A DNA stretch of 32,000 nt from Janthinobacterium sp. B9-8 (GTDB lineage Bacteria; Pseudomonadota; Gammaproteobacteria; Burkholderiales; Chitinibacteraceae). The number at the start of each line of letters is the position of its first letter. Within the stretch, counting starts at the first letter, position 1. The position numbers and the translations under genes are program-made. Below, in pieces: positions 1,889 to 18,997 of this stretch. The notes below the pieces were generated by a model. That model made no database searches and had not been told where the DNA came from. It was given only the letters and a program-made list of their open reading frames with translations. The stretch lies in the NCBI RefSeq assembly GCF_000969645.2, contig NZ_CP014222.1:1399813-1431812 (forward strand). Direction: 5' to 3'.

Positions 1889-1902
1889 GCAAACCCGCAG
1901 GC

Positions 1903-1937: not shown

Positions 1938-1946
1938 ATCAGAAGC

Positions 1947-4577: not shown

Positions 4578-4704
4578 TTTTAATCTCCAGAGAAACTTTA
4601 TAAACGGCTTTGAAATCACAACTTAAATAAGACTCGTAAGCCTTGTTACTGATTCACGCTGCAAAGCGAATACCCACAGAATATACCCAGCAGCCCAAGG
4701 ACCC

Positions 4705-4718
4705 TTGATTAATATCAA
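4705..4718. promoter_or_regulatory. Perfect FNR/ANR-type box TTGAT-TAAT-ATCAA upstream of adhE
   Basis: Exact match to the TTGAT-N4-ATCAA consensus, about 134 bp upstream of the adhE ATG. adhE is classically induced under anaerobiosis. Confidence 0.5.
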
Positions 4719-4741
4719 ATTGCGTTTGATTGACTCATATT

Positions 4742-4769
4742 ACTTCGCATAATGTATATTATGTCAAGT
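4742..4769 (+). other. dif-like XerC/XerD recombination site A (host XerC arm; probably the active dif / attL)
   Basis: ACTTCGCATAA-TGTATA-TTATGTCAAGT versus E. coli dif GGTGCGCATAA-TGTATA-TTATGTTAAAT. XerC arm 8/11, central region 6/6, XerD arm 9/11. Confidence 0.8.
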
Positions 4770-4885
4770 TGATGCTTACTATTTCCCCGATCTCCCCATC
4801 TCTAAAATCCCCGTAAAATCAAGCTTTTTTCGTAATAAAACTACGTACTCGTAACGGTTTGTAAATTCTAAAAATAGTTGATTTT

Positions 4886-5392
4886 ATGCTCAAAAAACGT
4901 CTGCAAAAAGATACAAACTTCAAACTTCATATTGAACAAGCACGCATCAAAAGCCGCGCCTTGCAGCTTTCCTTCTCTCCGCCCACCGTCACAGACGCTG
5001 ATCTTGTCTATTATTCTACCTTCATAATGGGCTTTGAGTGCTTCAATCAGACAGACCGCGCCAGCCGCTTCCTACAAGCCAGATACTACCGTAACGAGCT
5101 AAATCAATACGTCGCTAAGGGCCAATGGCCCAAACCAAGACAGCGCCTTGATTTGCTGCCTTGGTTTGCTTTGGCCTTCCCAGATTTTCCTTTGCCGGTC
5201 TCTGTGCCTAAAATCAGAGTGCCCCAGCTGCTCGCACTAGACACCAGTTATGAAGAGCGCGTTTTATTCGCTAATTCGCTGGAACTCATCCGCAAAACCC
5301 TTAGAAAAGCCGAACTCAAACGCCTACGCCTGCTGAAAAAGAAAAAAGCGGCCAAAGCCGCTTCAAATCCTGATCCAGAGCCAGACGCCTAA
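4886..5392 (+). CDS. Hypothetical protein with a Lys-rich C-terminus; att-proximal gene of element 1
   Basis: 168-aa ORF with an ATG start, 117 bp after site A. No motif recognised. Converges with and overlaps the 5389-5577 gene by 4 nt. Confidence 0.5.
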   Translation: MLKKRLQKDTNFKLHIEQARIKSRALQLSFSPPTVTDADLVYYSTFIMGFECFNQTDRASRFLQARYYRNELNQYVAKGQWPKPRQRLDLLPWFALAFPDFPLPVSVPKIRVPQLLALDTSYEERVLFANSLELIRKTLRKAELKRLRLLKKKKAAKAASNPDPEPDA

Positions 5393-5577
5393 AGATTCCA
5401 CGTAGGCGGCCCGTTCGTTTCCTTAATCCAACCCGTTCGACCTGGAGGCGCATTTTGCGCCGTTTTTGGTGCCAGATTTGGCCCCTTCATCCCCTTGACC
5501 TTTTCATAAATCATCATCGCCGCTACGCCCGCAATGGCCGCAAGTACTACGCCCTTGACGTCGTTCTTGCTCATCAT
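5389..5577 (-). CDS. Small single-TM membrane protein (last gene of a lysis-like cluster)
   Basis: ATGATG start overlaps the upstream stop (ATGA coupling). TM segment VVLAAIAGVAAMMIY. Confidence 0.45.
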   Translation of the reverse strand: MMSKNDVKGVVLAAIAGVAAMMIYEKVKGMKGPNLAPKTAQNAPPGRTGWIKETNGPPTWNL

Positions 5578-5792
5578 TGCGCGGCTGCTTTTCGTTCAGG
5601 AAGAAAGACGCCCAGCAAAGCGGCCACCACAGGCCCAGCGACCCCCACAGATGACATTAAGGCTGGATCAACATGCGCCAGCGCACCCAAAGCGGCCACG
5701 CCTGCCCATGTTGACGGCTCCTTCAGTCTTTCAAATAGATATTTAAGCTTTTTCAATGTATTCCCCTTTTTTGTGACTTTAGAAAATGTCAT
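5574..5792 (-). CDS. Small holin-like membrane protein
   Basis: Internal ATG at 5792 overlaps the stop of the upstream gene. MTFSKVTKKGN..LKEPSTWAGVAALGALA followed by a second hydrophobic segment. The EPSTW(A/R)G motif is recalled from small phage membrane proteins. Confidence 0.5.
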   Translation of the reverse strand: MTFSKVTKKGNTLKKLKYLFERLKEPSTWAGVAALGALAHVDPALMSSVGVAGPVVAALLGVFLPERKAAAQ

Positions 5793-6192
5793 ACCAATGT
5801 TTAATGGGCGCTTTGCCCTTGTTTTGCCGGTAATCCTTAACCGCATTACCCGCCGCGTAGGCCTTGCCAGCAGCCCACAACCCCACAACCGGCATACCGT
5901 CCAAATCTTGAATCAAGTCATAAGGCATGTAGGACATGCAGAGCTTTTCCTCCTCTGCGCCCACCGGAATCACGCCGGTTAATGCCTTTACATTCATCAA
6001 AAATTGCACTTTGTAGCTGTCGATAATTTCTTTTTTCTTTGCCGTATCGAGCTGCTTAATCTTCTCGGGCAGCTTCGCCACTACATCAACCGCCCCGCCC
6101 ACCGCGTCACTAATCTTGCGGCCTGCTAAATAAAGCAACAACGCCGCGCCGCCAGCTATCCAGAGCATTTGCTTATCCGTTAATATCGCCAT
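5779..6192 (-). CDS. N-terminally membrane-anchored hypothetical protein
   Basis: ATG with AAGGG 6 nt upstream. TM segment MLWIAGGAALLLYLAG. Coupled to the downstream small genes. Confidence 0.55.
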   Translation of the reverse strand: MAILTDKQMLWIAGGAALLLYLAGRKISDAVGGAVDVVAKLPEKIKQLDTAKKKEIIDSYKVQFLMNVKALTGVIPVGAEEEKLCMSYMPYDLIQDLDGMPVVGLWAAGKAYAAGNAVKDYRQNKGKAPIKHWYDIF

Positions 6193-6225
6193 GTATGCCC
6201 TTAACCCGCCTTTTTAGGTGCTGTA

Positions 6226-6555
6226 ATGAAAATTATCTTATTTTTGTCCCTAGTCACTTTTAATGCATTGGCTTTTTCATCCTCTTTTGAGTCCTACGGA
6301 GCAAGAGAGGATTACGGCCCTGATGTTGCCGAGTGCCGTAAAATCAGCTTTACAATTGATCGCGATGAATGCCTGTTCAAAATCATCAATGAAAAACAAA
6401 AAAACCAGCCCATCACAAAAAGTAAAGCCGACTTCTCTTACTGCCAAAAGCTGGGCATGTCCTATCAAAAAAGAGAAAAAATCGTGTCTAGCTCAAGCAT
6501 CGGCACGGGCATTGCCTTGTGCATACTTGATAAAACGGGCACTAGTCGAGACTAA
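6226..6555 (+). CDS. Secreted small Cys-containing protein (moron-like, opposite strand, AT-rich)
   Basis: AGGTG 6 nt before the ATG. Clear signal peptide MKIILFLSLVTFNALAFSSS. Fills a 349-bp gap that has no credible minus-strand ORF. Confidence 0.55.
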   Translation: MKIILFLSLVTFNALAFSSSFESYGAREDYGPDVAECRKISFTIDRDECLFKIINEKQKNQPITKSKADFSYCQKLGMSYQKREKIVSSSSIGTGIALCILDKTGTSRD

Positions 6556-7186
6556 TATCAGCCATTACCTCAAGGGCATAAACTCTTTGTTCTTTTTGTG
6601 GCATTTTTTCCGGCACAAAACGGCCGCCATTTGCGGCCAAATGCTTATTAAGCGTCCCCGGCCCACAATTGTATGCAGCCACGGCCTTCGTCCAATCCCC
6701 ATATTTTCTATACAGATAGGCCAGATATACGGCTGCAGCGTCCCCCGCCTGTTTCCAATTGTATGGATCAACCTTTGTGCCTAATTGCCGAGATAATTCA
6801 ACTACGGTAATCGGGTTGATTTGGAACATGCCAGCGGCCTTGCTGCCGGTGTTGTATGCAGTTTCTTTGAATCGGCTCTCTTGGTACGCAATTCGAGAAA
6901 GTAAGTAATTCGGCAAGCCCCTGTTTCTTCCGATTTGCTCTAACTCCGTCACGTATTGATTACCGCGTCCTGAAGTAACTGATTTTTTAAAGTCCGAATT
7001 AATCAAATCAAATGCATCCTCTAAATATTCACCAGCATCACTGAGGCTGGCTTTCATAAACCCAAAAACATCCGGCAAGAAAAAGCCGCCCTCTTTCTGC
7101 GTCTCCCCTGCCTTCTGCGCTTTAGCCATCAACAGCCACAAGCCGCCCAGCCCAAGCGCGATGACTACAATGGCTTTTTTATTCAT
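6542..7186 (-). CDS. Membrane-anchored lytic transglycosylase (SLT domain)
   Basis: QESRFKETAYNTGSKAAGMFQINP and AYNCGPG motifs. N-terminal TM segment. Start at internal ATG 7186, which overlaps the upstream stop (ATGA). Confidence 0.8.
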   Translation of the reverse strand: MNKKAIVVIALGLGGLWLLMAKAQKAGETQKEGGFFLPDVFGFMKASLSDAGEYLEDAFDLINSDFKKSVTSGRGNQYVTELEQIGRNRGLPNYLLSRIAYQESRFKETAYNTGSKAAGMFQINPITVVELSRQLGTKVDPYNWKQAGDAAAVYLAYLYRKYGDWTKAVAAYNCGPGTLNKHLAANGGRFVPEKMPQKEQRVYALEVMADISLD

Positions 7187-7395
7187 TCGGGCACTACCCG
7201 CAATTCCCACGCCGAGCCAGTCCAGCAAGGCCACTTATCGCCTATCGGGGCTTGTGGTTCTATAAATGTGGCGTTAGCCGGTAGCAGATAAACCCCGTCT
7301 TCAAGGGGGGATCGCTGTGCTAAGGTTGCGCCCAAATGTTCGCCCGTCAGTGGGTCGAATGAGTGTGCGGCTTTAAAGGCGGTCTGCTTTGCCAT
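7183..7395 (-). CDS. Small protein resembling the N-terminal part of tail-fibre assembly chaperones
   Basis: The pattern LLPANATFIEPQAPIGDKWPCWTGSAWEL resembles Tfa/gpG-type proteins (P.naT..PP....g.W.f.g..W). Lies directly after the collar-domain gene. Confidence 0.4.
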   Translation of the reverse strand: MAKQTAFKAAHSFDPLTGEHLGATLAQRSPLEDGVYLLPANATFIEPQAPIGDKWPCWTGSAWELRVVPE

Positions 7396-7411
7396 TGGTT
7401 TTTCTCGCTTT

Positions 7412-7939
7412 TTAGTAATAGATGCAGGGCAGTAAGGCGACGTTGCGGGGGCGAGTTTCTGTGCCGCCGACTATTCCCATCGAAGCCGACGAGTTAGAGG
7501 GGGACGTTGCAACATCACGACCCAATGGGAACTGCAACGTTCCCGCTGCGCCCTGTGCTGCGACCATATTTCCTGAAACTTGATTTCCATCAGTAAGCAC
7601 AATTGGGTGCTTGTGAGATTGAATATCACCACCCTGCCCAGACCCCACTACCCGACCGGAATCAATGCCGCGCCCCTGATCGGCAAAACGCGGGAATTCA
7701 CCGCGTAAATCGGGTAGTGCAAACGTGGTGTTGCCATCGCCTGCGCCGTACAAAATACCGATTGCCGCAAAAAGATTTGCGTAGGCTGTGCGGCTGATTA
7801 ACGCGCCATTGCAAAGCAAAGCGCCTGCCGGTGGAGTTGCACCGGCATGTGTAAAGACTTCTCCCGCCATTTTTCGCCGTCCGTATGTATTGACCACGCC
7901 CACAGTCGATTTGTAGATACGACGTGTCAGGCGGCCCAT
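7412..7939 (-). CDS. Phage tail-collar domain protein (candidate receptor-binding spike tip)
   Basis: PPAGALLCNGALISRTAYANLFAAIGILYGAGDGNTTFALPDLRGEFPR matches the Collar-domain signature. The ATG overlaps the upstream stop as TAATG. An alternative start is M24 at 7870. Confidence 0.75.
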   Translation of the reverse strand: MGRLTRRIYKSTVGVVNTYGRRKMAGEVFTHAGATPPAGALLCNGALISRTAYANLFAAIGILYGAGDGNTTFALPDLRGEFPRFADQGRGIDSGRVVGSGQGGDIQSHKHPIVLTDGNQVSGNMVAAQGAAGTLQFPLGRDVATSPSNSSASMGIVGGTETRPRNVALLPCIYY

Positions 7940-8511
7940 TAGTAGAGAATTTCCTGAATTTTTAGCGGGGCATTTGCTGCGTCAGCAATGGCAACCCATG
8001 CCGCGCCCGCCGCTGTTTCTTCCACCCATAATTCACCCGGAGCCAATTTAATGGCGGCGTCTGTCAGGCTTAGGCCTGCGCCACCGATCCAGATGTTTGC
8101 CGTGCTGGCATTAAATAAGCGAAGCGAAGCGCGATTGATGTTCTGGCCAATCACGACGCTTTCAGCCACGCCCACCAGCAACATGGGTTTATTGAGCACA
8201 GATAGCGCGGGTGTCAGTCGGGAATCGACTTTCCCAGAGATACGGTCGTAACCGCCGCTGGAGTCGTTAGACATGGCGATTTCAACGCGACCCGCCGCAT
8301 CGGTAATGATGTCAACGCGGTCGAATTGCTCATCATCGACTTTTAGCCAATAGCCGCCGAGCACGTCTTTTGCTTCACTGACTGCGCGGTTTTGCCGGAA
8401 AAATTGAATCGTTACCGGCCCGCCGCTGGTATCCAGCAGGCGAAAGTAGCGGCCTAAATAATTGATATTCCAAGTGCCAGCCGCTTGAAATACTTGTGAC
8501 ATTGTTTGCAT
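7939..8511 (-). CDS. Putative vertex/spike base protein (P1-like position)
   Basis: 190-aa beta-rich protein between the membrane-protein block and the collar gene. The assignment rests on position only. Confidence 0.4.
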   Translation of the reverse strand: MQTMSQVFQAAGTWNINYLGRYFRLLDTSGGPVTIQFFRQNRAVSEAKDVLGGYWLKVDDEQFDRVDIITDAAGRVEIAMSNDSSGGYDRISGKVDSRLTPALSVLNKPMLLVGVAESVVIGQNINRASLRLFNASTANIWIGGAGLSLTDAAIKLAPGELWVEETAAGAAWVAIADAANAPLKIQEILY

Positions 8512-8513
8512 GA

Positions 8514-9104
8514 TTAGCCCTTTTTAAATGCCATTAATGCAAATACGCCGATTACGGCAATAGCAATCGGTTTCATATCGCCAAGCGATTTACCGTCTTG
8601 TGCATCTTTGGCATTTTTCCAAGCATCAGATACTTGGCTTCCTGCTTTGGCCGCGATTTCAGCCACCGAATTGCTTGTATATTTCGCCAATTCTTGCGCG
8701 TTTTTTACCAAGTCATCGGTGATATGCTGATTTTTACCGATTGCCTCAAATGCGCTATTGGTAATGCGCACACCGTAATCTAATGAATCACGGTTAATTT
8801 CAGCAGATTTAACGGCCAATATATTTAAGCCATTTGCACCGGCATTAATACTGTCTTTCGCAACACTTAACGCGCCGGATATAGCGCCTAAATCCGTCGA
8901 AGTAACATGATTCGTTGTATTGTTGGTAGATCGGTTGCTGGTATCTACGCTGGTATTTTGTGTGAAGCTGGACGTACTTCTATTGGATAAATCTAAATTA
9001 GTCGTGCTGTGATTTGAATAATCAAGCTGCTTTTGATCCCACGTTTGGTTATACGTATTTGTTGTATTTTTGACTTCATTATTTGTATCGCTATTGCCGC
9101 CCAT
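8514..9104 (-). CDS. Asn/Ser/Thr-rich C-tail-anchored membrane protein
   Basis: Low-complexity N-terminus with a repeated SNRST motif. C-terminal TM segment PIAIAVIGVFALMAF. TAATG coupling with the upstream gene. Confidence 0.6.
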   Translation of the reverse strand: MGGNSDTNNEVKNTTNTYNQTWDQKQLDYSNHSTTNLDLSNRSTSSFTQNTSVDTSNRSTNNTTNHVTSTDLGAISGALSVAKDSINAGANGLNILAVKSAEINRDSLDYGVRITNSAFEAIGKNQHITDDLVKNAQELAKYTSNSVAEIAAKAGSQVSDAWKNAKDAQDGKSLGDMKPIAIAVIGVFALMAFKKG

Positions 9105-9487
9105 TACTTTTCCTTTCTCAAAACGATTTCAGCATCGACAAAGCCCATGCCGCGCCAAATTCTGGCTAATGCCGGATTAGTCACATGAGTGCGGATTGAA
9201 TCAAACGGCTCGCATAAAACAATTAATTCCCGCATAGCTTCGCGCAATTCGGCAAGGGTTAGCTTGCCACCGCATGCAACAATTACGGCTTCTTCTAACC
9301 CGTCGTCGAATTTTTCAACGCGCAATAAAACACACCCCGCAATTTCCCCATTTTCGCGGGCATACTCAAACAGCACCGCGTTGCCGGATTCAACCGCATT
9401 GCAATAGCTGTTTGAGTTTCCACGCGCACTACGCTGGAGCTGGCATAAATGCCAATTGTTTGGCTGTTTTACACGTCGTAATTTCAT
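9104..9487 (-). CDS. Soluble hypothetical protein
   Basis: 127-aa ORF with ATGA coupling on the upstream side and TAATG coupling on the downstream side. No secure motif. Confidence 0.5.
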   Translation of the reverse strand: MKLRRVKQPNNWHLCQLQRSARGNSNSYCNAVESGNAVLFEYARENGEIAGCVLLRVEKFDDGLEEAVIVACGGKLTLAELREAMRELIVLCEPFDSIRTHVTNPALARIWRGMGFVDAEIVLRKEK

Positions 9488-9786
9488 TTCTTTTTTAGTT
9501 TCTTAAGCAGCAGCACTAAAAGCAATAATCCACCGGCCAAAAGCAAATATTGCTGGGTGTTCCCCGCTGGCCCACTATTTACGCCCTGACTCATACTTGG
9601 CACCGAGTCTTGACTGGATCGTTGTGACTGATCTTTTTTAAGTGATGTGTATTGCGTACCTCCGCCCAAATTAACAATAAAATCCCCTGTTGCCAGACTG
9701 TTGTTGCCGCCGTAGCGGTAACTTTGATCTGCCATTGAGGAAAGCGCCGACTGGCGCATACTGTTGATGGATAAGGGCGCGCCCAT
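9484..9786 (-). CDS. C-tail-anchored membrane protein
   Basis: C-terminal LLLAGGLLLLVLLLKKLKKK. TAATG coupling to the upstream gene. Confidence 0.55.
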   Translation of the reverse strand: MGAPLSINSMRQSALSSMADQSYRYGGNNSLATGDFIVNLGGGTQYTSLKKDQSQRSSQDSVPSMSQGVNSGPAGNTQQYLLLAGGLLLLVLLLKKLKKK

Positions 9787-10052
9787 TACTTCACCAGCAG
9801 AAAGACAATCACCACACCGACCGCCGCCATCATCAGCAGCCCCGTGTTACCACTTACCGCTGGTAACAAGGTTTGCTGATTTGTGGGTTGACCTGGCACA
9901 TATGGTTGTCCCGTTCCCGGATCAACCATATAGGGCCGATTTGCTGTGCCGAACTCGCGCCCGATATAGCCTTTAGCCGCACTACCGACAATATCCTGAA
10001 TAAAGCCCGTCCAATCACTGCCCGCACCAGCGGGCACTTCTGAATCTGACAT
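9786..10052 (-). CDS. C-tail-anchored membrane protein
   Basis: C-terminal GLLMMAAVGVVIVFLLVK. AAGGCGG RBS. Directly downstream of the capsid candidate. Confidence 0.55.
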   Translation of the reverse strand: MSDSEVPAGAGSDWTGFIQDIVGSAAKGYIGREFGTANRPYMVDPGTGQPYVPGQPTNQQTLLPAVSGNTGLLMMAAVGVVIVFLLVK

Positions 10053-10063
10053 ATTGCGCCGCC

Positions 10064-10858
10064 TTATAGGTTGCCGAGCAGGTCGATATACTCAACATAA
10101 ACGGTAATGGTTTCCGGCCCGCTAAACGTCGGGTTTACTTCAAACGACACGCAATCCGAAGTGCTCAGCATATCGGTTTGATTGTTGTCCACGATTGGAT
10201 CGAAAATATAATAGCCAGCTTGCGGCGTCTTTTTATTTTCCTTTTGCCAAAATTCGTTTACTTCTTTGACCGATTCATGAATAACCGTGCCATTTTTTTT
10301 GATTTCAAGACCGTTTGCGGTATTGGATTTAATATAAATCCGCTTGATGATCGAACCGCCTTGATTTCCGTATGGCAAAGCAAGCGGCCATTTGCCCGCA
10401 GCCGCAATATTGAAATTGTATTTCAACATTTTATTGCAGACGGTTAATTGGCGCGGGCCACTGATAATTGACCAGCAAGTCAATTGTGGAGCAACGGCTG
10501 TTCCCGCAATATCCACTTCCACAACGGCCTGAGATACGCCATTTACCGTACCAAGCGCACCAATAGATTGGCCTACCTGATCGCGCGCAAATAGTTCTGT
10601 GAAATCAATTGTAATGAATTTTGAATCTGTCGCTAAACCGGAATAGGCATTGATTGATTCAAGATCAGCCGCATTGCATTGGTGAATGACCTTGCCATTT
10701 ACACGCATACGAATATCCGTGATATGGGTTTTATTAAACGTTGTGCCGCCCATTTGCAGCATTAAGCGTTCATACGTCATGCCATTAGGCAAAGTCAGTG
10801 TTGCCGTGCTACCGGCAATCACATTAAAAAATGGTAATTCTTTTCGCTGCATTGTCAT
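10064..10858 (-). CDS. Candidate double-jelly-roll major capsid protein (PM2 P2-like)
   Basis: 264 aa (PM2 P2 is about 269 aa). Beta-rich, and sits between the ATPase and the membrane-protein block. N-terminal pattern L.LPNGMTYE..L...G.T......I..IR..VNGK and C-terminal VYVEYI match my recollection of P2. Not verifiable here. Confidence 0.6.
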   Translation of the reverse strand: MTMQRKELPFFNVIAGSTATLTLPNGMTYERLMLQMGGTTFNKTHITDIRMRVNGKVIHQCNAADLESINAYSGLATDSKFITIDFTELFARDQVGQSIGALGTVNGVSQAVVEVDIAGTAVAPQLTCWSIISGPRQLTVCNKMLKYNFNIAAAGKWPLALPYGNQGGSIIKRIYIKSNTANGLEIKKNGTVIHESVKEVNEFWQKENKKTPQAGYYIFDPIVDNNQTDMLSTSDCVSFEVNPTFSGPETITVYVEYIDLLGNL

Positions 10859-10884
10859 TATGCAAAGCCCTTTTTGTGTTTGGG

Positions 10885-10980
10885 TTATTTGCCGATTACA
10901 GCGTCTTTTAACGCGCCAACGCGATACACCACGGCCATTACACCGATGACCAGCAAAACGCTTTTAACTGTTGAATTCAT
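10885..10980 (-). CDS. 31-aa single-TM protein (below the track threshold)
   Basis: MNSTVKSVLLVIGVMAVVYRVGALKDAVIGK, with AAGGGG 8 nt upstream of the ATG. Lies 26 nt upstream of the capsid gene. Confidence 0.4.
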   Translation of the reverse strand: MNSTVKSVLLVIGVMAVVYRVGALKDAVIGK

Positions 10981-11084
10981 TTTTATCAGCCCCTTGGGGT
11001 TAATTGATTAAAGAGACTTAATAATCTGATATTTTTTTAGAAAAGAAAATAGACGGACTTTTACCCTTTAAGGCGTCCTATATG

Positions 11085-11105
11085 CATCAAATACCCATCA
11101 AATAC
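11085..11105. repeat. Tandem 11-bp-period direct repeat CATCAAATAC-C-CATCAAATAC
   Basis: Two exact 10-mers one helical turn apart, in an AT-rich non-coding gap. Flanked by two copies of AAATAGACG (11048 and 11123). Confidence 0.6.
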
Positions 11106-11131
11106 GCCCCCTATTTATTTTTAAATAGACG

Positions 11132-11160
11132 AAAAAAACGCCACATTTGTGGCGTTTTTT
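11132..11160 (-). terminator. Rho-independent terminator after the ATPase gene, inside the leftward gene chain
   Basis: AAAAAAA-CGCCAC-attt-GTGGCG-TTTTTT. On the minus strand the stem is followed by seven U. Confidence 0.7.
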
Positions 11161-11215
11161 GCACGGTCAGATGTTATTTAATGGGTAAAACTCCCGCGCC
11201 CCATTGCATCAGTGA

Positions 11216-11947
11216 TTAGCGAAAGGCGAGCTTGCCGCGTGTTATTTCGCGTAAGCGGGTGTTTTTTTCGATAAAGTGAAAGTCAGGCATATCCAGAATT
11301 TCTTGCGCTGGAACACCTAAAATGCCGGCCATCTTTTTGGCGTGGATCGGCTCATTTAACCGGCCGCACCGAATCAGCGTGGCGTTACCGAAAAACTTTT
11401 TATCAATATCGGCGGGCGTCTGGCTCAGGCCATAAATGGTTAAGCCTTGGGTGCGGCCTTGGGTGGTGCATTTTTTCCAACCGGCGACGGCAAAGGTCGG
11501 GCTTGTGACTTCGGCCAGTTCTTCCGCAACCAGCGTGAGCCGCCCGAGGTGGAACGCGGCCATGCAGAATAAGTCGAAAAGCTTCGCCATTTGCTTGCTG
11601 TTGCCATAAGGAACCAACGCCAATCTAAAAGATTCATTAGCTCGCGCCAACTTAACCATTTCTTCCAGCGAGTGCACGGCCTTGGCGTGCCCTTCTTCTG
11701 CAAATTCCCCTTTCGTATCCCACACCAATACGCGTGTGGGTTTGTGCTCGCGTAGCTGTTCCATGACATAGCTGGTTTTCCCTGAGCCGGACGCCCCTAA
11801 GACGGCCTGAATGTTGGCCTCATTCATGCGCCCAATGGTGGGCATGTTTGATGCCTGTTTGACGGGTGTTTTACGCGCTGGCTTGTTCATTCGCCGCCGC
11901 TGCTTTTTCTGCTGCTTCTTTGGCCGCTTTAGCCACGGCGCGGTCAT
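11216..11947 (-). CDS. FtsK/HerA-superfamily genome-packaging ATPase (PM2 P9 / PRD1 P9 type)
   Basis: Walker A GASGSGKTS, VLVWDTKGE, Walker B LTLVAEELAE. The true start is probably internal (ATG at 11890 or 11845), because the maximal ORF overlaps the upstream gene by 77 nt. Confidence 0.7.
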   Translation of the reverse strand: MTAPWLKRPKKQQKKQRRRMNKPARKTPVKQASNMPTIGRMNEANIQAVLGASGSGKTSYVMEQLREHKPTRVLVWDTKGEFAEEGHAKAVHSLEEMVKLARANESFRLALVPYGNSKQMAKLFDLFCMAAFHLGRLTLVAEELAEVTSPTFAVAGWKKCTTQGRTQGLTIYGLSQTPADIDKKFFGNATLIRCGRLNEPIHAKKMAGILGVPAQEILDMPDFHFIEKNTRLREITRGKLAFR

Positions 11948-12335
11948 GCTTTACGCCCTTAATGGTTTCTTGTGCAATGGGGTACACCACGACCGCAAAA
12001 CCGATTTCTGCAGCCCATTTGTCCAAAATGCCGCCGCTGGTAATGTTGTACTTAGCCAAAAGCGGGCCAGCGGCTACCGCGATACGCTCAATTCGGTCAT
12101 CGGTATAGATTGAATTAAGGCTTGGATAGAAACCGCCCAAGGCTTCACGCGCTACGTTTAAAAGTAATTTCGCCTCGTTTGCGTAGGTGTCATCCAGATG
12201 CACAACATCAGGCACACCACCAGCCCCCGACATTCCGCCGATTTCAGAATCTAGCGCACCGGCCTGTTGCTCAATATGGGCCAGCGCGTCATAGCCGCCG
12301 CTATATGCCGTTTCAATAGTTTGTTGTTCTGACAT
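11871..12335 (-). CDS. Hypothetical protein
   Basis: 154-aa ORF with AGGA 7 nt upstream. Ala/Lys-rich C-terminus. No motif recognised. Confidence 0.55.
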   Translation of the reverse strand: MSEQQTIETAYSGGYDALAHIEQQAGALDSEIGGMSGAGGVPDVVHLDDTYANEAKLLLNVAREALGGFYPSLNSIYTDDRIERIAVAAGPLLAKYNITSGGILDKWAAEIGFAVVVYPIAQETIKGVKHDRAVAKAAKEAAEKAAAANEQASA

Positions 12336-12343
12336 GGGTTTTC

Positions 12344-12607
12344 CTAATTAAAGAGTGAAAAAGCGGATTTTTTTTCTTGTACCGGTGCAACAACCGGTGC
12401 CAGTGTTGGAGCTGGTGCGGAATCGCTTGAAACTGGCGTCATTTTGGCTCGTATATGACTGTCAGCAGTCTGTCCAAATGCTTGTAGCTTATTGTCGCAG
12501 TAGTTACATGTTGCGATAGCAAAGCCATTGGCCTGCTGTTTGACAGGAATCACCTCGCCGCAGCAGGTGCAAGCCATGCGGCCGATTTTTTGCATAGGTT
12601 TAGCCAT
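12344..12607 (-). CDS. Zn-ribbon protein (candidate P14-like late transcription activator)
   Basis: CTCC-x17-CNYC four-Cys ribbon. Start at ATG 12607 overlaps the upstream stop; the track start at 12634 is a TTG. Lies after Rep, as gene XIV does in PM2. Confidence 0.55.
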   Translation of the reverse strand: MAKPMQKIGRMACTCCGEVIPVKQQANGFAIATCNYCDNKLQAFGQTADSHIRAKMTPVSSDSAPAPTLAPVVAPVQEKKSAFSLFN

Positions 12608-12827
12608 GGGTGAGAATCCCCATACGGCGTTCAAGCACTTCGAGACGCTCTTTCATGGCAAGTATTTCTGCCCCTCTTAATTCGTCCCTTTCCAATAGCT
12701 CCAAAATTGCTTGGTTATGGATCAAAATTTGATTGTGAGTAGCTAATGCAAAATCAATTGCACAATCTTTTGCTGCCATCATTCCTGCAGATTTGAGTTT
12801 CTTAAGTGTTCTTGCTAATTCATCCAT
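12600..12827 (-). CDS. Small coiled-coil protein (P13-like position)
   Basis: 75 aa with heptad-like Leu/Ile spacing. The ATG overlaps the Rep stop by 8 nt. Confidence 0.5.
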   Translation of the reverse strand: MDELARTLKKLKSAGMMAAKDCAIDFALATHNQILIHNQAILELLERDELRGAEILAMKERLEVLERRMGILTHG

Positions 12828-14718
12828 GATTCAATCTCCGGTTAATTTCGAAACGATTTTTTTCCTTTAGCAGCCCGTTTTTAATGCCGGGCTTGCCGCT
12901 TTTGTCGCGGTTTTTCGCGTCTTGGGACTCTGACCACTTGGGGCCGTGTTCCCATTGATGGGGTTTTATCTGCTGAAGCTCTTTTTTGAATAAAAAGGCC
13001 TGCTGTTTCATCCAGCTTTCAATCGCTTGTACCTGGCATTTGGTAATTTCACGAACAGGCTCGTTTTCTAATTTAGGTATAGTTATTGCCACGGGTCCAA
13101 GGCTGCGCGCTCCGCTTGCCAAACCAAGGGCAAAATCAGAAGCCAAAGCTTCACGCTTTGCGCCCCAATTTACAGACCATGAATCGCGCACCTGCTTAAA
13201 TTCTCCGGTTGCCGGATCTACTACTTCTTTGACTTCTCGCGTCAAAACCTGCGCACCAGTGCGAGTATTTTTAAGACCGATCAAGTCCTTGACCTCTTCA
13301 CCGTAGCAATTGGCGCGCACCAGATTGACCGGCTCTAACTTGTCTTGGCGCACCGCACGGATAAACGCGGCATAGTCACCAACATCCGCAGCTAGAAAGG
13401 CCGCTTGATTGACTTTGCCGACGGCGATCAATTGCGCCGCCTCTTCACGTATGCCGGTTAATTTTGCGAACACATCAGCGCGGCCCGCTTTTCTTGCATC
13501 ACATGCAGCCAGCGCCAAGGGGGCGGCATGGCCCGCAAGAATGGCCCGCGCTGGCCCGTCAGTGTCAGCGTGGTCGATCAGCGCTTCTACGGCCTTCTTT
13601 TGGCGATGAAACCGGCGCAATTCACGGTATTGGCCGATCTTCTCAGCGCCGAACAGTTGAAACTGACGAATACCCCACATTGACGCCCAAACTACGGCCC
13701 TAACCGCGCCCTCTTCTGCGCCGGTTTGGGCTTCCCAATCGCCGCCCTCTATGGCTGCGCCGTCTGATTTTTTACCATCAATATTTTTTGAGATATAAGC
13801 CGCTGCATAGGCCACCGCATCGCCGCGCTTTGGGTCGATTGGCTTGATATCTACACGGCGTTTTTTTGCGCCCTCTTCGTTCCGATCTTCGCGCATGGCT
13901 TCACGCCGAATAATGGCAAGCGTCTTTTTTACGTGCTCAGGCGCTATGAAAATAATCATGTGCCAGTGCGGCGTCCCGTCGTGGTGTGGCTCTGTTGCAC
14001 GAAACCCGAATAAGGCCGGTAAGTATTTTTTGCTTAAGTAATTGCGCATCTTCTGGAAAATGCCGCCTAGGTATTGCGCGGTTTCCTTGGGGCTAGCCCC
14101 GTTCCATTTGTCGTTCTCAACAGCAAAGCCACGGCTAACTGTCATGCGGTGGTATTTGCTGGGCGCGGTAATCGCAATGGCAAAGCCAAGCATGTTTTGC
14201 TCAGCGGCCACCGCCTGAACTCCCTTTACTCGCGTAAAGAATTCACCGCGTTTAATGGTGGGATTGGATACGCTGGATGCGATCACCTGCGCTAAGTCGA
14301 TTTCTTGCCCGCCACCGCTGCTAATGGTTGCGGCTTCAATGGCTTTTTGTGCGCGTTTACGGCGGCGCATCATGCGGCGTAGGCTTAATTCTGAGATATA
14401 AGGCGATATGCGAAGGCCGACGTTACCGGCCCGCAGCATTTCAAGCTCGCAATGGCGAATGCTCATTACCTGAAGCTGCCGACGCCACCACTTAGCCACC
14501 GGCAAGCGGCTTACCAGCTTAGCGGCTTCTTCTTTATCTTCAATATCAAAGCCCGCAAGGATGGCCGCTTCATTTAGCGCCACCTCTGGCCCCTGATTCT
14601 GTATTAGTCGGGCAAAGTCCTTTGCCAGTGTTTCGGCCTTGTGCGCAATCTCGTCATCTGAGTGCGGCAAGGCGGCGGCAAAGTGAGCACGAATTACAGA
14701 AAGGGGGAAGTCAGTCAT
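12820..14718 (-). CDS. Rolling-circle replication initiator, phage P2 gpA / PM2 P12 family
   Basis: 632 aa. HUH-type motif EPHHDGTPHWHMIIF and the tyrosine motif AVAYAAAYISKNIDG, both characteristic of gpA-family endonucleases. Confidence 0.85.
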   Translation of the reverse strand: MTDFPLSVIRAHFAAALPHSDDEIAHKAETLAKDFARLIQNQGPEVALNEAAILAGFDIEDKEEAAKLVSRLPVAKWWRRQLQVMSIRHCELEMLRAGNVGLRISPYISELSLRRMMRRRKRAQKAIEAATISSGGGQEIDLAQVIASSVSNPTIKRGEFFTRVKGVQAVAAEQNMLGFAIAITAPSKYHRMTVSRGFAVENDKWNGASPKETAQYLGGIFQKMRNYLSKKYLPALFGFRATEPHHDGTPHWHMIIFIAPEHVKKTLAIIRREAMREDRNEEGAKKRRVDIKPIDPKRGDAVAYAAAYISKNIDGKKSDGAAIEGGDWEAQTGAEEGAVRAVVWASMWGIRQFQLFGAEKIGQYRELRRFHRQKKAVEALIDHADTDGPARAILAGHAAPLALAACDARKAGRADVFAKLTGIREEAAQLIAVGKVNQAAFLAADVGDYAAFIRAVRQDKLEPVNLVRANCYGEEVKDLIGLKNTRTGAQVLTREVKEVVDPATGEFKQVRDSWSVNWGAKREALASDFALGLASGARSLGPVAITIPKLENEPVREITKCQVQAIESWMKQQAFLFKKELQQIKPHQWEHGPKWSESQDAKNRDKSGKPGIKNGLLKEKNRFEINRRLNHG

Positions 14719-15095
14719 GCGGCGCGGGACTTCACAAAACCAGCGGCGCGGGCGTGCCAGCTTTTCGCGTAAGCGTCTTCTAGGTTCTTAATCATCATGC
14801 CCATTTCCATGCGCATACGATCAAAGCCTGCAAAATCTACTGATAAGTGCTGACTGCCTGCGAATTCCTGACGTGCAATAATCGCCTTGTCTAGCCTTTC
14901 TAGATCTTCTTTAATCCGTAGAAGCGCATGCTCTTGTGAATCGCTTAACGCATCAACAGCAGAAAGCCCCGGCTTTTGCGCTGGTTTGAATGGTTTTTGT
15001 GTTTTCTTGATTGGGGTTTGTGTCGGGAAATGTGCGACCTTTGACAGCAATTCTGCCCTTGCAACTTGCCCTTCTGGAATATCGCGCAAATCCAT
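14715..15095 (-). CDS. Hypothetical early protein (first gene of the leftward operon)
   Basis: 126-aa ORF whose stop overlaps the Rep ATG (ATGA). GAGG 9 nt upstream. Confidence 0.55.
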   Translation of the reverse strand: MDLRDIPEGQVARAELLSKVAHFPTQTPIKKTQKPFKPAQKPGLSAVDALSDSQEHALLRIKEDLERLDKAIIARQEFAGSQHLSVDFAGFDRMRMEMGMMIKNLEDAYAKSWHARAAGFVKSRAA

Positions 15096-15162
15096 CTAAA
15101 TAAGCCTCGCCTGATGGTTACAATTAGTTGTCATATCATCAGTGAGTAGTCGGAACGCTTTC

Positions 15163-15202
15163 GCTATGCTTGCTATGTTTGATGCGTCACTTACGCGTCA
15201 CT
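15163..15202. promoter_or_regulatory. Short direct repeats in the divergent control region of element 1 (candidate operators)
   Basis: GCTATG twice (15163 and 15172) and GCGTCACT twice (15184 and 15195, period 11). They lie between the leftward operon and the repressor-like gene. Confidence 0.3.
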
Positions 15203-15312
15203 GATGCCCCTATATTAGCCAGCCTATGCCCGATGTGAAGACATCGCCCGTATGTTGGAAAAATCATTTTTTTATGCCAAAACTACAGAACATCCATCTT
15301 GGAAGCCCCGAA

Positions 15313-15648
15313 ATGATAGATACCGCATTCTTACTTTCAGCAATAAAATCAAAGCATTGCGCCCCATCCGACTATCGCGTTGCAAAGATGCTCGATCTAA
15401 GCACGACTACAGTTTCCGGATACCGCTGTAAAGGCGAAACGCCCAGCGATATCACGCTATCAAAAATATCTGAGCTGCTTAAAGTGCCCCCGCACATTCT
15501 TTACGCTGCAATTCAGCACGAACGAGCGCGCGACCCATCGGCAAAGCGAGTGTGGGCAGAAACTTACCGGCTAATTGGTGGGGATGAGCTAGAAAAAAGA
15601 CTTACAAAAGAATGCTTTAGCGAAGAGATAGAAAAAGCAGGGGCGTAA
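15313..15648 (+). CDS. HTH repressor-like protein of element 1
   Basis: The maximal ORF starts at 15226. ATG 15313 (MIDTAFLL) aligns co-linearly with the element-2 repressor at roughly 25 percent identity by eye (VAKMLDLSTTTVSGYRCKGETP versus LSKHLGGSRGLVTQWRTEGKVP; HERARDPSAKRVWAE versus QREKSTERKAFWEN). Confidence 0.5.
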   Translation: MIDTAFLLSAIKSKHCAPSDYRVAKMLDLSTTTVSGYRCKGETPSDITLSKISELLKVPPHILYAAIQHERARDPSAKRVWAETYRLIGGDELEKRLTKECFSEEIEKAGA

Positions 15649-15707
15649 AAAAAGCCTACTCCTCTTAGTCTTGAGGGGTAAGCTTTCATGGGGTGTTTCA
15701 ATTATTC

Positions 15708-15735
15708 CGTAAGCATATTGTATATTATGTCAAGT
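15708..15735 (+). other. dif-like site B (junction between the two elements)
   Basis: CGTAAGCATAT-TGTATA-TTATGTCAAGT. The central region plus XerD arm plus one more base is identical to site A over 18 bp. XerC arm matches the host arm at 6/11. Confidence 0.75.
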
Positions 15736-15789
15736 TACCTTAAGTTTACGCGCCGCAGAAAACGACCAACACGTAACATCCAGCAAACC

Positions 15790-15822
15790 AAAAACGCCAG
15801 CTTCCGAAACTGGCGTTTTTTT
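15790..15822 (+). terminator. Rho-independent terminator just inside element 2
   Basis: AACGCCAG-cttccgaaa-CTGGCGTT followed by TTTTT. In the circular phage form it would lie directly downstream of the repressor gene across attP. Confidence 0.7.
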
Positions 15823-15835
15823 ATGTGATTTCGAT

Positions 15836-16285
15836 ATGCGAATGTATCCCCGCGCCGGCTTTTACCCCAAACCGGCCACAGAAGCGCTTTTAAGCGCCCT
15901 CCTTGCACTTCCTGCCTCCGACATGTGCGACGCGCTCGGAATATCGCTAGAAACACACCTAGGCTATTTAACCGGCCAAATCCCCACACCTAAAATCGTT
16001 TTTCTGTTCGCTCAAGTCATCGCCGGTCAAGAGCTGGGCAAAGGCTGGGGTAAATTCTCAGGAATGCGTATCGAAGGCGACTGGCTCGTATTACCCGGAT
16101 ACGACAAAAAGGAAGGGATTCGGTACGAAGAACTTAAAAACCTCTGGCACACACGTCAAACCCTCGCACTAGCAAGCGGCTACACCCGAACCATTGAAAA
16201 ACTCATGCTTGAGCGTGACTTCTACAAGCGCCAATGCCGCAAAGAAGCCCGCTTCGGCATGATGCTTAACCAGATCATTCCTTAA
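15836..16285 (+). CDS. HTH plus DUF3653-like protein (candidate XafT-like Xer activation factor)
   Basis: N-terminal HTH-like SDMCDALGISLETHLGYLTGQIP. C-terminal GWGKFSGMRIEGDWLVLPGYDKKEGIRYEELKNLW resembles DUF3653 as I recall it. Starts 100 bp after site B. No obvious RBS. Confidence 0.5.
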   Translation: MRMYPRAGFYPKPATEALLSALLALPASDMCDALGISLETHLGYLTGQIPTPKIVFLFAQVIAGQELGKGWGKFSGMRIEGDWLVLPGYDKKEGIRYEELKNLWHTRQTLALASGYTRTIEKLMLERDFYKRQCRKEARFGMMLNQIIP

Positions 16286-16478
16286 CAGCGCCCTGCTGCT
16301 TGCTTCAGGCGCTAAAGGCGGGTTCTCGTGGGGTAATTCGTTGCTTCTTATTTCGAGCAGCTTAATAGCCTCAGGCGGGGCCGCCTTCAGCACGACGCAT
16401 TGCACGCCGTGGCGACAGTTTTACAGCTAGATTTGATGTGGCGTTAATCCTTAATTCGTGACAGTCACGACAAGACCA

Positions 16479-16919
16479 CTAAGAACCGATGCAATCGATT
16501 TTTTGCATTTTCTTTACAACCCAATTGTATTCATCCTGCAAGCTTTGGGTGGATCTGTGCCGCTGTTGGGACAAGATGCCGCGCTTTCGTAAAATTAACT
16601 GCGGGCATTCGTCAACATCCCATTGGTGAGATGAAACCACAGTGGATCGGGCTGCTTCTGCACTGCGCCGTTCTTGCTGGTTACGTTCAAGTTCGCGCTC
16701 AATGGCCTCTCGTGCCCTTGCCTCTTTAACGTAGCCAGACAAATCCGCACTACCAATGAGTGCATCTTTGTCGGTTATTTTCTTGGCCGTTTTTAAACCT
16801 GAATCCTCGCAAGGCATGTTTTGGTAGGTGTATTTTGGCCGTTTGCCGTCAAAACACTTAAACATTTCCGCTGAAGAATATGTGGAAGCAAAAGCAAACA
16901 TCATGAGCAGGTATTTCAT
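16479..16919 (-). CDS. Secreted DUF4124-like protein
   Basis: Signal peptide MKYLLMMFAFASTYSSA, then MFKCFDGKRPKYTYQNMPC (the DUF4124 signature Y.C.D..G...Y...PC) and a charged coiled segment. The ATG overlaps the antitoxin stop (ATGA). Confidence 0.7.
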   Translation of the reverse strand: MKYLLMMFAFASTYSSAEMFKCFDGKRPKYTYQNMPCEDSGLKTAKKITDKDALIGSADLSGYVKEARAREAIERELERNQQERRSAEAARSTVVSSHQWDVDECPQLILRKRGILSQQRHRSTQSLQDEYNWVVKKMQKIDCIGS

Positions 16920-17206
16920 TGATGCAAGGACTCAAGCGCCAAGCTTGGCGACTTCGAAACAATTTGCAGCAATGCTGCTGCTGGGCCGGTCGGGTTACGC
17001 CGGTGCTGTTCCCAATTTTGAAGCGTCTTTACGCTTACACGCATCAGCCCCGCAAACTCGCCCTGAGACAATCCTGTCTGTGCTCTGATCGCTCGCACAT
17101 CGGGCGGCAAAACCTCAAAACGACGTGCTGTTTGGTTCTCCCCGGATGCAATGCTTTTTGCTTCTTTAAGACTCTGCACCAAGTCCTCGAAAAGTGACGG
17201 TTCCAT
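16916..17206 (-). CDS. XRE-type HTH antitoxin (HigA/NadS-like, COG2944 type)
   Basis: GLSQGEFAGLMRVSVKTLQNWEQHRRNPTGPAAALLQIV is the hallmark of this antitoxin family. Lies 1 nt downstream of the toxin stop. Confidence 0.8.
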   Translation of the reverse strand: MEPSLFEDLVQSLKEAKSIASGENQTARRFEVLPPDVRAIRAQTGLSQGEFAGLMRVSVKTLQNWEQHRRNPTGPAAALLQIVSKSPSLALESLHQ

Positions 17207-17207
17207 G

Positions 17208-17519
17208 TTAAAGCTCCTTTACTAAATCGTGCAAAATCGCGGTCTCAGCGTCAGTTAGCGTGTCTTTTTTAGACTTGGGGTAAATGAGTAACATGTAAAT
17301 CTGATGGTCCTCCCTAACCCAGTAATAAATCGCCCTGACTCCACCACTTTTACCGCGGCCTGTGACGGCATAACGGATTTTACGAATACCTCCCCCGCCC
17401 TTAATAACATCGCCACGCGCGGGGTTTTCTACCAATTCATTTTGTAAGCCTCTGTATTCATCGTCTGTTAAAAGTGCTTTCAGCAAGCGGGTAAATGTTG
17501 GGGTTTCGATAAATTCCAT
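17208..17519 (-). CDS. RelE/ParE-superfamily toxin (HigB-like, PF06296-type)
   Basis: MEFIETPTFTR...GGGGIRKIRYAVTGRGKSGGVRAIYYW...IYMLLIYPKSKKDTL. Start at internal ATG 17519. The toxin-first gene order is typical of HigBA. Confidence 0.8.
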   Translation of the reverse strand: MEFIETPTFTRLLKALLTDDEYRGLQNELVENPARGDVIKGGGGIRKIRYAVTGRGKSGGVRAIYYWVREDHQIYMLLIYPKSKKDTLTDAETAILHDLVKEL

Positions 17520-17528
17520 GAGTAAAAT

Positions 17529-17545
17529 ACTATACGCCATTGGCG
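17529..17545 (-). promoter_or_regulatory. Candidate TA promoter -10 (TATAGT) with adjacent 11-bp palindrome CGCCAATGGCG
   Basis: On the minus strand, CGCCAATGGCG-TATAGT lies 9 nt before the toxin ATG. This suggests a near-leaderless transcript and an autoregulatory operator. Confidence 0.35.
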
Positions 17546-17584
17546 GACAAAACAAGGGGAAAATGTAGGGGTTTAGCGCGATAG

Positions 17585-18988: not shown

Positions 18989-18997
18989 AAAAAACCC

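Follow-up and report, generated by a model that had tools for sequence, protein, structure and literature searches.

A PM2-like prophage apparently integrated at the chromosomal dif site of an Iodobacter-like betaproteobacterium

A stretch of 32,000 nucleotides from Janthinobacterium sp. B9-8 (NZ_CP014222.1, positions 1,399,813 to 1,431,812; hereafter the window, whose own numbering is used throughout) contains a genetic element related to the membrane-containing phage PM2. The element is a unit of 10,966 bp which lies within positions 4742-15735 and is flanked by two direct dif-like 28-mers, and the interval of 4753-15718 that had been marked out for it in the original prediction is precisely one repeat unit. 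The length fits the approximately 10-kb genome of Vinavirales, and one relative (L032; the L numbers designate the loci compared here) is an 11.2-kb circular contig. The gene list drawn up from the letters alone also holds, every gene being found in its place, on the minus strand, and coupled to its neighbour by overlaps of 1-8 nt, as at 14715/14718, 12820/12827, 9484/9487, 9104, 9786, and 7939. All 20 genes of the element are open and translationally coupled, and several starts are probably internal to the open reading frames (ORFs), namely, those of the SLT protein (7186), the zinc protein (12607), and the ATPase (~11890). The capsid protein is 100% identical to the NCBI entry "major capsid protein P2 [Janthinobacterium sp. 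B9-8]", and the 149-aa ORF at 15836 also matches this genome. Since the AdhE encoded beside the element shares 99% identity with the Iodobacter arcticus protein, the host, which bears the name "Janthinobacterium sp. B9-8" at NCBI, is on this protein evidence an Iodobacter-like freshwater betaproteobacterium.

Capsid, Packaging, and Replication Genes

The genes described in this section are all on the minus strand. The one that defines the virion type is located at 10064-10858 and encodes the major capsid protein (MCP), of 264 aa. It had been proposed as a capsid candidate in which a double jelly roll (DJR) like that of PM2 P2 should be found, and sequence and fold both agree with this proposal. 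The protein matches the Pfam families P2_N (2.4e-33) and P2_C (8.5e-45). A profile of 13 homologues retrieves from the PDB the "Double jelly roll capsid protein" 9t9v (1.8e-25) and PM2 P2 itself (2vvf, 1.8e-12). The AlphaFold2 (AF2) model, obtained with 29 homologues and having a predicted local distance difference test score (pLDDT) of 91.6, finds in PM2 P2 its top Foldseek match in the PDB, with a TM-score of 0.90, a root mean square deviation of 2.2 Å, and an E-value of 1.5e-20; the next structural matches are the capsid proteins of STIV, PBCV-1, and PRD1.

The gene directly upstream of the MCP gene, in the same position as in PM2, encodes the packaging ATPase (11216-11947, 243 aa). It is of the FtsK/HerA type and a homologue of PM2 P9, as its place in the operon had suggested. 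Indeed, it matches phrog_2666 (3e-29) and is 30% identical to PM2 P9 (tblastn, E 2e-18) and 35% identical to the ATPase of phage NO16 (E 9e-34); the match to HerA in the PDB is weak. The rolling-circle initiator Rep (12820-14718, 632 aa) belongs, likewise as predicted, to the gpA/P12 family, with matches to Pfam Phage_GPA (3.3e-70) and phrog_91 (5e-116), and is 37.6% identical to PM2 P12 over 338 aa (E 7e-61).

The vertices of the virion can be assigned to two further genes. The 190-aa product of orf190 (7939-8511), which is conserved across the family, is the penton base, or vertex protein, since its profile (13 homologues) matches over nearly the full length the "Penton base (GP14)" of PDB 9t9r/9t9v (E 1.6e-4). 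This assignment was obtained solely with the family profile against the PDB; the single-sequence AF2 model has a pLDDT of 37, the PDB matches of the single sequence were spurious armadillo designs and were discarded, and the hhalign comparison with PM2 P1 gives 13.8%, which is not significant. The adjacent gene (7412-7939) encodes a 175-aa receptor-binding spike with a phage tail Collar domain (Pfam Collar 6.6e-22; tail-fibre PHROGs down to 6e-40), in accordance with the spike module placed here beforehand. With a P2-type capsid recognised by sequence and fold, a P9-type ATPase, a P12-type Rep, and a penton base, the proposal of a PM2-type genome is well founded.

Attachment Sites and Related Loci

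A 19-mer search finds three dif-like sites in the window and none in 100 shuffles, so that the bracketing of the element by such sites is real and not a product of chance. All three are on the plus strand. Site A (4742-4769), the attL, is a complete, regenerated dif-like site, ACTTCGCATAA TGTATA TTATGTCAAGT, and the only one of the three with a good XerC arm. This arm is host-derived and, together with the left flank, identical to the empty dif of I. arcticus; the central region is also the host's, whereas the XerD arm is phage-derived and differs from the host arm at 2/11 positions. The same 28-mer also flanks the prophage of Iodobacter sp. CM08 (L002), and it resembles the dif of Neisseria, AGTTCGCATAATGTATATTATGTTAAAT. 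Site B (15708-15735), CGTAAGCATAT TGTATA TTATGTCAAGT, is the attR of the PM2-like element and at the same time the attL of a neighbouring inovirus. It combines a good XerD arm with a degenerate XerC arm and equals the predicted attP. Site C (23105-23132), GACTACAATAG TGTATA TTATGTAAAGC, is the outer junction of the array, whose order is dif, DJR prophage, site B, inovirus, and site C; its XerD arm is the one that the host had originally, and the empty I. arcticus dif has an identical one.

The empty site was taken from I. arcticus because synteny with Iodobacter sp. CM08 is absent on the right flank. In I. arcticus, the sequence upstream of adhE matches that of the window at every base until a single, prophage-free site is reached, ACTTCGCATAA TGTATA TTATGTAAAGC, whose XerC arm is that of site A and whose XerD arm is that of site C. 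This composition is the outcome expected if two circles had recombined successively with dif inside the central region. The PM2-like element probably arrived after the inovirus, as it adjoins the intact XerC arm. In addition, DNA homology with the CM08 prophage stops at 15737, two bases past the end of site B, and the same element adjoins adhE in Iodobacter sp. CM08, in Chitinilyticum aquatile, and in one metagenome contig.

On the other side of adhE, 5-8.5 kb away, related Iodobacter genomes carry a second dif-like site in inverted orientation, [TA][AGT]TTCGTATAT TGTATA TTATGT[AC]AAG[TC], found at 18361(+) in L029, 15522(+) in L030, and 9263(+) in L031. An inovirus related to that of the window is located at this second site in L030. 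In I. arcticus, the ABC-F gene that lies to the right of site C in the window is located beyond the second site, and for this reason the adhE segment seems, from the arrangement of these genes, to have been inverted between the two dif-like sites in one Iodobacter lineage.

The wider family was surveyed in one genome per species with the 13-sequence MCP alignment, the 29-sequence alignment being too divergent for a genome scan. Related MCPs occur at 28 loci, nearly all of them in Betaproteobacteria, with hosts including Iodobacter, Chitinilyticum, Noviherbaspirillum, Sulfuricella, Burkholderia, Paraburkholderia, Cupriavidus, Nitrosovibrio, and Rhodocyclus. The loci have in common a syntenic module of helix-turn-helix (HTH) regulator, Rep, zinc protein, orf154, ATPase, MCP, and penton. 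Dif-like sites bracket 19 of the 28, 17 with right-armed and two with mirror, left-armed sites. The 17 have two direct dif-like sites, 10.05-12.5 kb apart, with a common central region and XerD arm; the site on the HTH side lacks a recognisable XerC arm in every one of them, and the paired hexamers are identical in 15. Ten types of central hexamer are found, differing between hosts, among them TGTATA, TTCGCA, TGTTTC, ATCACC, TTTATC, TGAGTA, TTTGTA, and TTGGTA. Xer strand exchange requires the central region to vary with the host dif in this way. In the two mirror loci, from Herbaspirillum frisingense and a Noviherbaspirillum metagenome-assembled genome (MAG) (L024, 4360/15437; L008, 4906/15288), the XerC arm and central region are kept and the XerD arm is lost. 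As far as these sequences can tell, one virus family is using both one-armed geometries, always with the crippled junction beside the HTH gene. Since a chance pair of 17-mers within 20 kb is expected at only about 0.01 per locus (an estimate), the bracketing can be considered a property of the family.

All but two small genes of the element are kept in order in CM08, with 27-95% aa identity, and those present in the metagenome contig L031 show 55-90% identity. No inovirus lies between the two sites in CM08, and its 20.8-kb locus contains no third site. L032, an 11,231-bp contig recovered from five samples, has ends that overlap by 30 nt and a single attP, which directly follows its HTH gene. 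The overlap makes it a circle, and free circular forms of the family therefore exist.

Some loci depart from this pattern. L014 (4855/15234) and L027 (3792/15993) have no dif-like brackets and show other direct repeats, the 15-bp TTCTGAAAACAGTAA and a longer GC-rich repeat; judging from these flanks, such relatives, few in number, are probably integrase-type members of the same capsid lineage. L033, a Logan contig of 11,221 bp with a related MCP, has a Rep_1-family initiator in place of the gpA Rep, which points to exchange of replication modules within the clade; it also carries a PhdYeFM/ParE toxin-antitoxin pair between ATPase and MCP, and its end is a full dif, ATTGCGCATAA TGTATA TTATGTTAAAT. 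Finally, in L030, a MAG with 99% identical AdhE, the same adhE dif holds a different 9-kb element between dif-like sites (768-9836). This element encodes a phrog_4441 repressor (1.7e-23), a gpA-family Rep, a lysozyme, and a tail-fibre-like protein of 511 aa. It has no recognisable capsid or ATPase gene, and its ORFs of 245, 188, and 313 aa have no PHROG match; possible readings are an IMEX (integrative mobile element exploiting Xer) virus with an unrecognised type of capsid, or a satellite.

Remaining Genes and the Neighbouring Inovirus

The leftward operon begins with orf126 (14715-15095, minus strand), 68% identical in L002. Between Rep and the MCP gene, all on the minus strand, lie four genes placed by comparison with PM2. 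The 75-aa coiled-coil protein (12600-12827) was assigned from its translation and occupies the P13 position. It is followed by the four-Cys zinc-ribbon protein at the P14 position (12344-12634), kept in L001-L003, L009, L010, and L025; the gene announced by the original prediction is present, while its equivalence to P14 is one of position. Then come orf154 at the position of gp h (11871-12335), kept in nearly all related loci, and, past the ATPase gene, a 31-aa membrane protein at the position of gene VII, which encodes 34 aa (10885-10980; kept in L002, L005, and L008). The SLT enzyme of the lysis region had been equated with PM2 P7, but gene VII (P7) in the PM2 GenBank record is the 34-aa structural protein, and its counterpart is the 31-aa ORF.

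Still on the minus strand, the MCP gene is followed by two C-tail-anchored membrane proteins of 100 and 88 aa (9484-10052), recognised from their translations and located at the P3/P4/P8 position. Next to them is the conserved orf127 (9104-9487), with homologues in L003, L006, and L013, no role assigned, and no Pfam or PHROG family match. It is adjoined by orf196 (8514-9104), an Asn/Ser/Thr-rich protein with a C-terminal transmembrane (TM) anchor and homologues in L001, L002, L003, L007, and L031. Beyond the penton and spike genes lies the small orf70 (7183-7395), which is found alongside the Collar gene in L002, L014, L015, and L031.

The lysis region contains an SLT-domain lytic transglycosylase with an N-terminal membrane anchor (6542-7234, minus strand; 230 aa, Pfam SLT 5.1e-21, probable start 7186), whose PHROG matches are endolysin and virion-transglycosylase families. 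Three small genes of the same strand accompany it. The first, orf137 (5779-6192), has an N-terminal TM segment, is 74-90% identical in L002 and L031, and may act in lysis or entry. The second is a lysis-module candidate of approximately 72 aa (5574-5792, probable ATG inside ORF 5574-5888), a membrane protein without family matches which is resembled by a 75-aa ORF in L003. The third, a 62-aa single-TM protein (5389-5577) kept in L002 and L031, is a holin-like candidate. On the opposite strand, inside this region, lies orf109 (6226-6555, plus strand; 109 aa), a candidate accessory gene of the moron or exclusion kind. It has no family match, and its N-terminus is hydrophobic and, as judged by eye, signal-peptide-like; the stretch has a lower local G+C (0.455-0.475) and diverges from the CM08 prophage, and orf109 itself is kept in L031. 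The slot is akin to the variable regions described in Vibrio DJR prophages.

Both termini of the element are occupied by plus-strand genes. At the end bearing the XerD arm is orf168 (4886-5392), an ORFan kept in L002, L031, and L003. It has three homologues among 1.84 billion representatives in a full HMMER search, no Pfam or PHROG match, and no relationship to the 149-aa protein of the inovirus or to the XafT-like family; its slot is the one in which relatives carry a XafT-like (DUF3653-like) gene. At the other terminus, adjoining the attP and 60 bp from site B, is the HTH regulator HTH140 (15226-15648), a candidate repressor (phrog_4441 2.4e-15; phrog_638 1.4e-10; weak HTH_3). A regulator of this kind holds the terminal position in almost every related locus, and HTH140 is weakly similar to the NO16 DNA-binding protein that precedes the dif-like site of that phage, itself a weak match with two mismatches in the XerD arm. 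The divergent control region between orf126 and the HTH gene (15137-15206) has a perfect 9-nt inverted repeat, CATCAGTGA / TCACTGATG, 52 nt apart, and two short tandem repeats, GCGTCACT x2 and GCTATG x2, which are candidate operators.

The second element of the array is an inovirus of 7.4 kb (15736-23104, minus strand), recognised by Pfam, PHROG, and hhalign matches. Pfam and PHROG identify on the minus strand Zot (17703-18686), a DUF2523 protein (18683-18988), a pIII-like protein (18998-20359), a Rep of the G2P/RstA type (20904-22109), and RstB (22279-22581), in addition to a RelE/Xre toxin-antitoxin pair (16916-17555). On the plus strand, a terminal HTH regulator, HTH134 (22724-23128, PHROG), overlaps site C; it and HTH140 both match phrog_4441 and phrog_638 and are weakly similar to each other. 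At the other end, also on the plus strand, is a 149-aa XafT-like protein (15836-16285), homologous by hhalign (97.5%, E 8.5e-12) to the terminal ORFs of DJR relatives from Sulfuricella, Nitrosovibrio, Rhodocyclus, and others. XafT, a Xer activation factor, has DUF3653 as its domain (PMC6744903). The link of the 149-aa protein to this domain comes from matches, below the Pfam threshold, of three of those terminal ORFs; the homologues of the protein have no precomputed Pfam domain, and no relative was found in the PDB.

Mode of Integration, Alternatives, and Known Systems

In Pfam and PHROG scans of both strands, neither the 20 listed genes, those of 31-75 aa included, nor six frame-overlapping ORFs of at least 100 aa matched an integrase, transposase, or serine recombinase; other frame-overlapping ORFs, below 100 aa, and the function of orf168 leave a small gap. 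For every ORF scanned, the description of the element as integrase-less is thus borne out. No tRNA gene, as an alternative target of integration, lies within the window. The GC-skew profile is dominated by the prophage genes and was set aside. Integration would depend on the host XerC and XerD, given the anatomy of the sites and given that in 19 loci the central region changes with the host dif. In this regard, the IMEX reading draws on the dif bracketing, the empty dif of I. arcticus, the break of homology at site B, and the 19 bracketed relatives.

The proposed sequence of events is as follows. The circular genome would carry a right-armed attP of 17 bp just downstream of the HTH repressor gene, made up of the 6-bp central region TGTATA and the XerD-binding arm TTATGTCAAGT and preceded by a degenerate XerC arm. 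Recombination would have taken place at a dif which a filamentous phage had presumably used earlier. Its outcome can be read in the sequence: the junction facing adhE is a complete dif (site A), and the one facing the repressor gene is crippled (site B). The latter may disfavour FtsK-driven excision and thereby stabilise lysogeny. By homology with PM2, the gpA/P12-type Rep would start rolling-circle replication of the excised circle; the P9-type ATPase would package it into a capsid of P2-type trimers with penton and spike vertices, and the SLT transglycosylase and small membrane proteins would release the particles.

Taken together, the region 4753-15718 appears to be an intact temperate PM2-like virus of the Vinavirales, integrated at the chromosomal dif of an Iodobacter-like betaproteobacterium, a reading to which a probability of about 0.85 can be given. 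Its virion would be icosahedral and tailless, with an internal membrane and a circular dsDNA genome of ~11 kb. Several observations weigh against this picture. The XerC arm of the attP is poor, with 6/11 matches; xerC and xerD are outside the window; and DUF3653 has no match in any ORF of the PM2-like element, whereas several relatives and the neighbouring inovirus have a XafT-like homologue. The internal lipid membrane, for its part, is predicted from the small TM and tail-anchored ORFs around the MCP gene and from homology.

HUH endonucleases can mediate site-specific integration in other systems. It is conceivable, yet very improbable, that a function encoded by the element itself, either the HUH Rep or orf168, carries out integration and excision in place of XerCD, the dif-like flanks being a case of target mimicry. 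That orf168 lies at the end of the element and has no assigned function speaks for such a role, but the junctions have exactly the arm, central region, and arm that make up a Xer site, the ten hexamers found at the centre change along with the host dif, as expected for Xer strand exchange, and the same type of site is used by relatives with at least three unrelated families of terminal gene and with a different Rep (Rep_1, L033). A further reading accepts the Xer pathway and makes the element an IMEX unable to recombine alone, its attP without XerC arm needing a Xer activation factor supplied in trans by the 149-aa XafT-like protein of the inovirus (15836-16285), a form of help that Midonet et al. 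put forward for the gonococcal island. The homology of this protein (97.5%, E 8.5e-12) to terminal ORFs of DJR relatives, three of which weakly match DUF3653, the want of a XafT-like gene in the PM2-like element, and its position on the side of the array with the complete dif, probably reached after the inovirus, are all in keeping with such help. Nevertheless, this is unlikely, because in Iodobacter sp. CM08 near-identical elements bearing orf168 occupy dif and the sites enclose no inovirus, the DUF3653 matches remain below the Pfam threshold, and the attPs on which XafT is known to activate XerD are of the opposite geometry, lacking the XerD arm.

The intactness of the element can also be questioned. 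The degenerate XerC arm of site B could block excision, as in the gonococcal island (PMC6744903), and the prophage might be cryptic and immobilised, complete in appearance but no longer excising or forming particles. This appears rather improbable when 20/20 genes are open and translationally coupled, gene order is maintained in CM08 (27-95% aa identity, all but two small genes) with genes 55-90% identical in L031, a relative exists as a free 11.2-kb circle, and relatives of the NO16 type and the Vibrio dif type are inducible (PMC9966536, PMC11630473). That the region is the decayed remnant of a tailed phage has practically no probability and was rejected on gene content and on the P2-type double jelly roll fold of the capsid protein. 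The phage tail Collar domain and tail-fibre PHROG matches at 7412-7939 might suggest it, but receptor-binding domains are commonly exchanged between phage groups, the element contains no HK97-fold capsid, portal, terminase, or tail genes, and the unit is collinear with PM2. A more specific proposal can also be formulated, namely, that the betaproteobacterial clade uses an uncharacterised Xer pathway, with a dsDNA attP made of central region plus XerD arm, promoted in the Iodobacter subgroup by orf168 as a new factor for Xer activation or XerC positioning unrelated to DUF3653. This proposal is speculative and, on present evidence, doubtful.

PM2-like prophages, betaproteobacterial ones included, were described by Krupovic and Bamford in 2007 (PMC1950889), with XerCD mentioned only through the example of CTXphi. 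In NO16, a tailless vibriophage that can be induced, Kalatzis et al. in 2023 reported dif-like sites, and they proposed that it integrates through XerCD (PMC9966536); in the same year XerCD integration was proposed for Jorvik, an alphaproteobacterial Vinavirales phage (PMC10589892). Steensen et al. in 2024 found tailless prophages at Vibrio dif sites (PMC11630473). More recently, Ma and Zhang in 2025 defined "dif-type DJR phages" as IMEXs, with full, left-armed, or right-armed attPs, a repressor/XafT module common with inoviruses, and frequent inovirus-DJR tandem arrays (PMC12715192). The novelty of a DJR virus living as an IMEX, which the original prediction implied, does not stand, as this was published for Vibrio (2023-2025) and Rhodobacter (2023). 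Every conceptual part of the finding has thus been published, and what is found here is probably a new betaproteobacterial clade; no paper on such a clade or on the B9-8 prophage was found in the literature searched, which is absence of evidence only.

The significance of the clade lies in the extension, from Gamma- and Alphaproteobacteria to Betaproteobacteria, of a lifestyle in which membrane-containing tailless dsDNA viruses hijack the chromosome dimer resolution of the host. The related loci form a natural series in which the hexamer tracks the host dif, the arm missing from the attP is in some cases that of XerC and in others that of XerD, and the terminal gene is either XafT-like or unrelated; this series could be used to dissect the recombination of one-armed attPs. 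It is here, and in the terminal ORFan orf168, that the remaining interest resides. Furthermore, in freshwater and soil betaproteobacteria small prophages are stacked at dif regions, where automated callers often merge or miss them.

Among known systems, PM2 itself, a Pseudoalteromonas phage of the Corticoviridae, has a genome of 10,079 bp as compared to the 10,966 bp of the element. The PM2 record lists divergent regulators, d, e, XII (Rep), XIII, XIV, h, IX (ATPase), VII (34 aa), II (MCP), small membrane proteins, j, I (spike), V, VI, k, and l, and the element is collinear with it gene for gene up to the membrane proteins after the MCP. The kinship of the MCPs is visible by profiles and structure only, with a structure-based identity of ~20% and nothing at E<0.01 in pairwise tblastn. 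PM2 is known as a lytic phage only, from a marine gammaproteobacterial host, whereas the element is a prophage; its spike is a Collar-domain protein with a separate penton, where PM2 has P1, and it carries an SLT lysis enzyme which is unannotated in the PM2 record. PM2 (L040) nonetheless has at 747-774 (minus strand), among its leftward regulator genes, a right-armed dif-like site with a perfect XerD arm, CGTGCTTACGA TTTATA TTATGTTAAAT. Its 17-mer occupies the same relative position as the attP here and was already remarked by Kalatzis et al. (PMC9966536). Because the MCP is too diverged from that of PM2 and 26-30% identical to that of any sequenced phage, the element would be placed in the order Vinavirales but not in the Corticoviridae sensu stricto; NO16-type phages, at a similar distance from PM2, were proposed as a separate family (PMC9966536). 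No close sequenced phage exists among the 50,697 phage records searched, as megablast of the whole element gave no match.

The dif-type DJR phages of Vibrio (NO16 "Asemoviridae"; PMC12715192, PMC9966536) are likewise integrase-less tailless prophages at dif and are classed as IMEXs. Their attPs are full-length, left-armed, or right-armed (17 bp), the last being the form found here. As in the element, a repressor gene is located at one terminus, tandem arrays with inoviruses bearing a related repressor are frequent, and the terminal gene is separated from the lysis genes by a variable accessory region. The host class differs, and so does the terminal gene, the P15/XafT-like gene of Vibrio being replaced by the unrelated ORFan orf168. 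With the MCP 26-30% identical to those of the Vibrio phages and the ATPase 35% identical to that of NO16, the element belongs to a separate clade. The Rhodobacter phage Jorvik (PMC10589892), likened here by description only, is also a temperate, membrane-containing, integrase-less member of Vinavirales with dif-like attP/attB and proposed XerCD use, but its host is an alphaproteobacterium and it integrates in the RuBisCO cbbII operon, not demonstrably at the terminus dif.

The filamentous-phage satellite TLCphi (PMC6744903) offers the nearest likeness in recombination. One attP arm is missing there too, with a fully homologous central region, and after integration a functional dif remains at which a further element can enter, so that arrays can form; site A may serve in this way here. 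In TLCphi, the XerD arm is the missing one, and XafT (HTH plus DUF3653) is encoded; the element described here, a capsid-encoding dsDNA virus, lacks the XerC arm and a DUF3653 protein. The mirror attPs of the Herbaspirillum and Noviherbaspirillum relatives, having lost the XerD arm, are TLCphi-like in this respect. Filamentous IMEXs of the CTXphi/VGJphi type also exploit XerCD at dif, and the inovirus of the window, with its Zot, RstA-like, and RstB-like proteins, is one of them. Unlike the PM2-like element, they have ssDNA genomes and are extruded without lysis; the attP of CTXphi is ssDNA folded into a hairpin, and in VGJphi-type sites both arms are present, with partial central homology.

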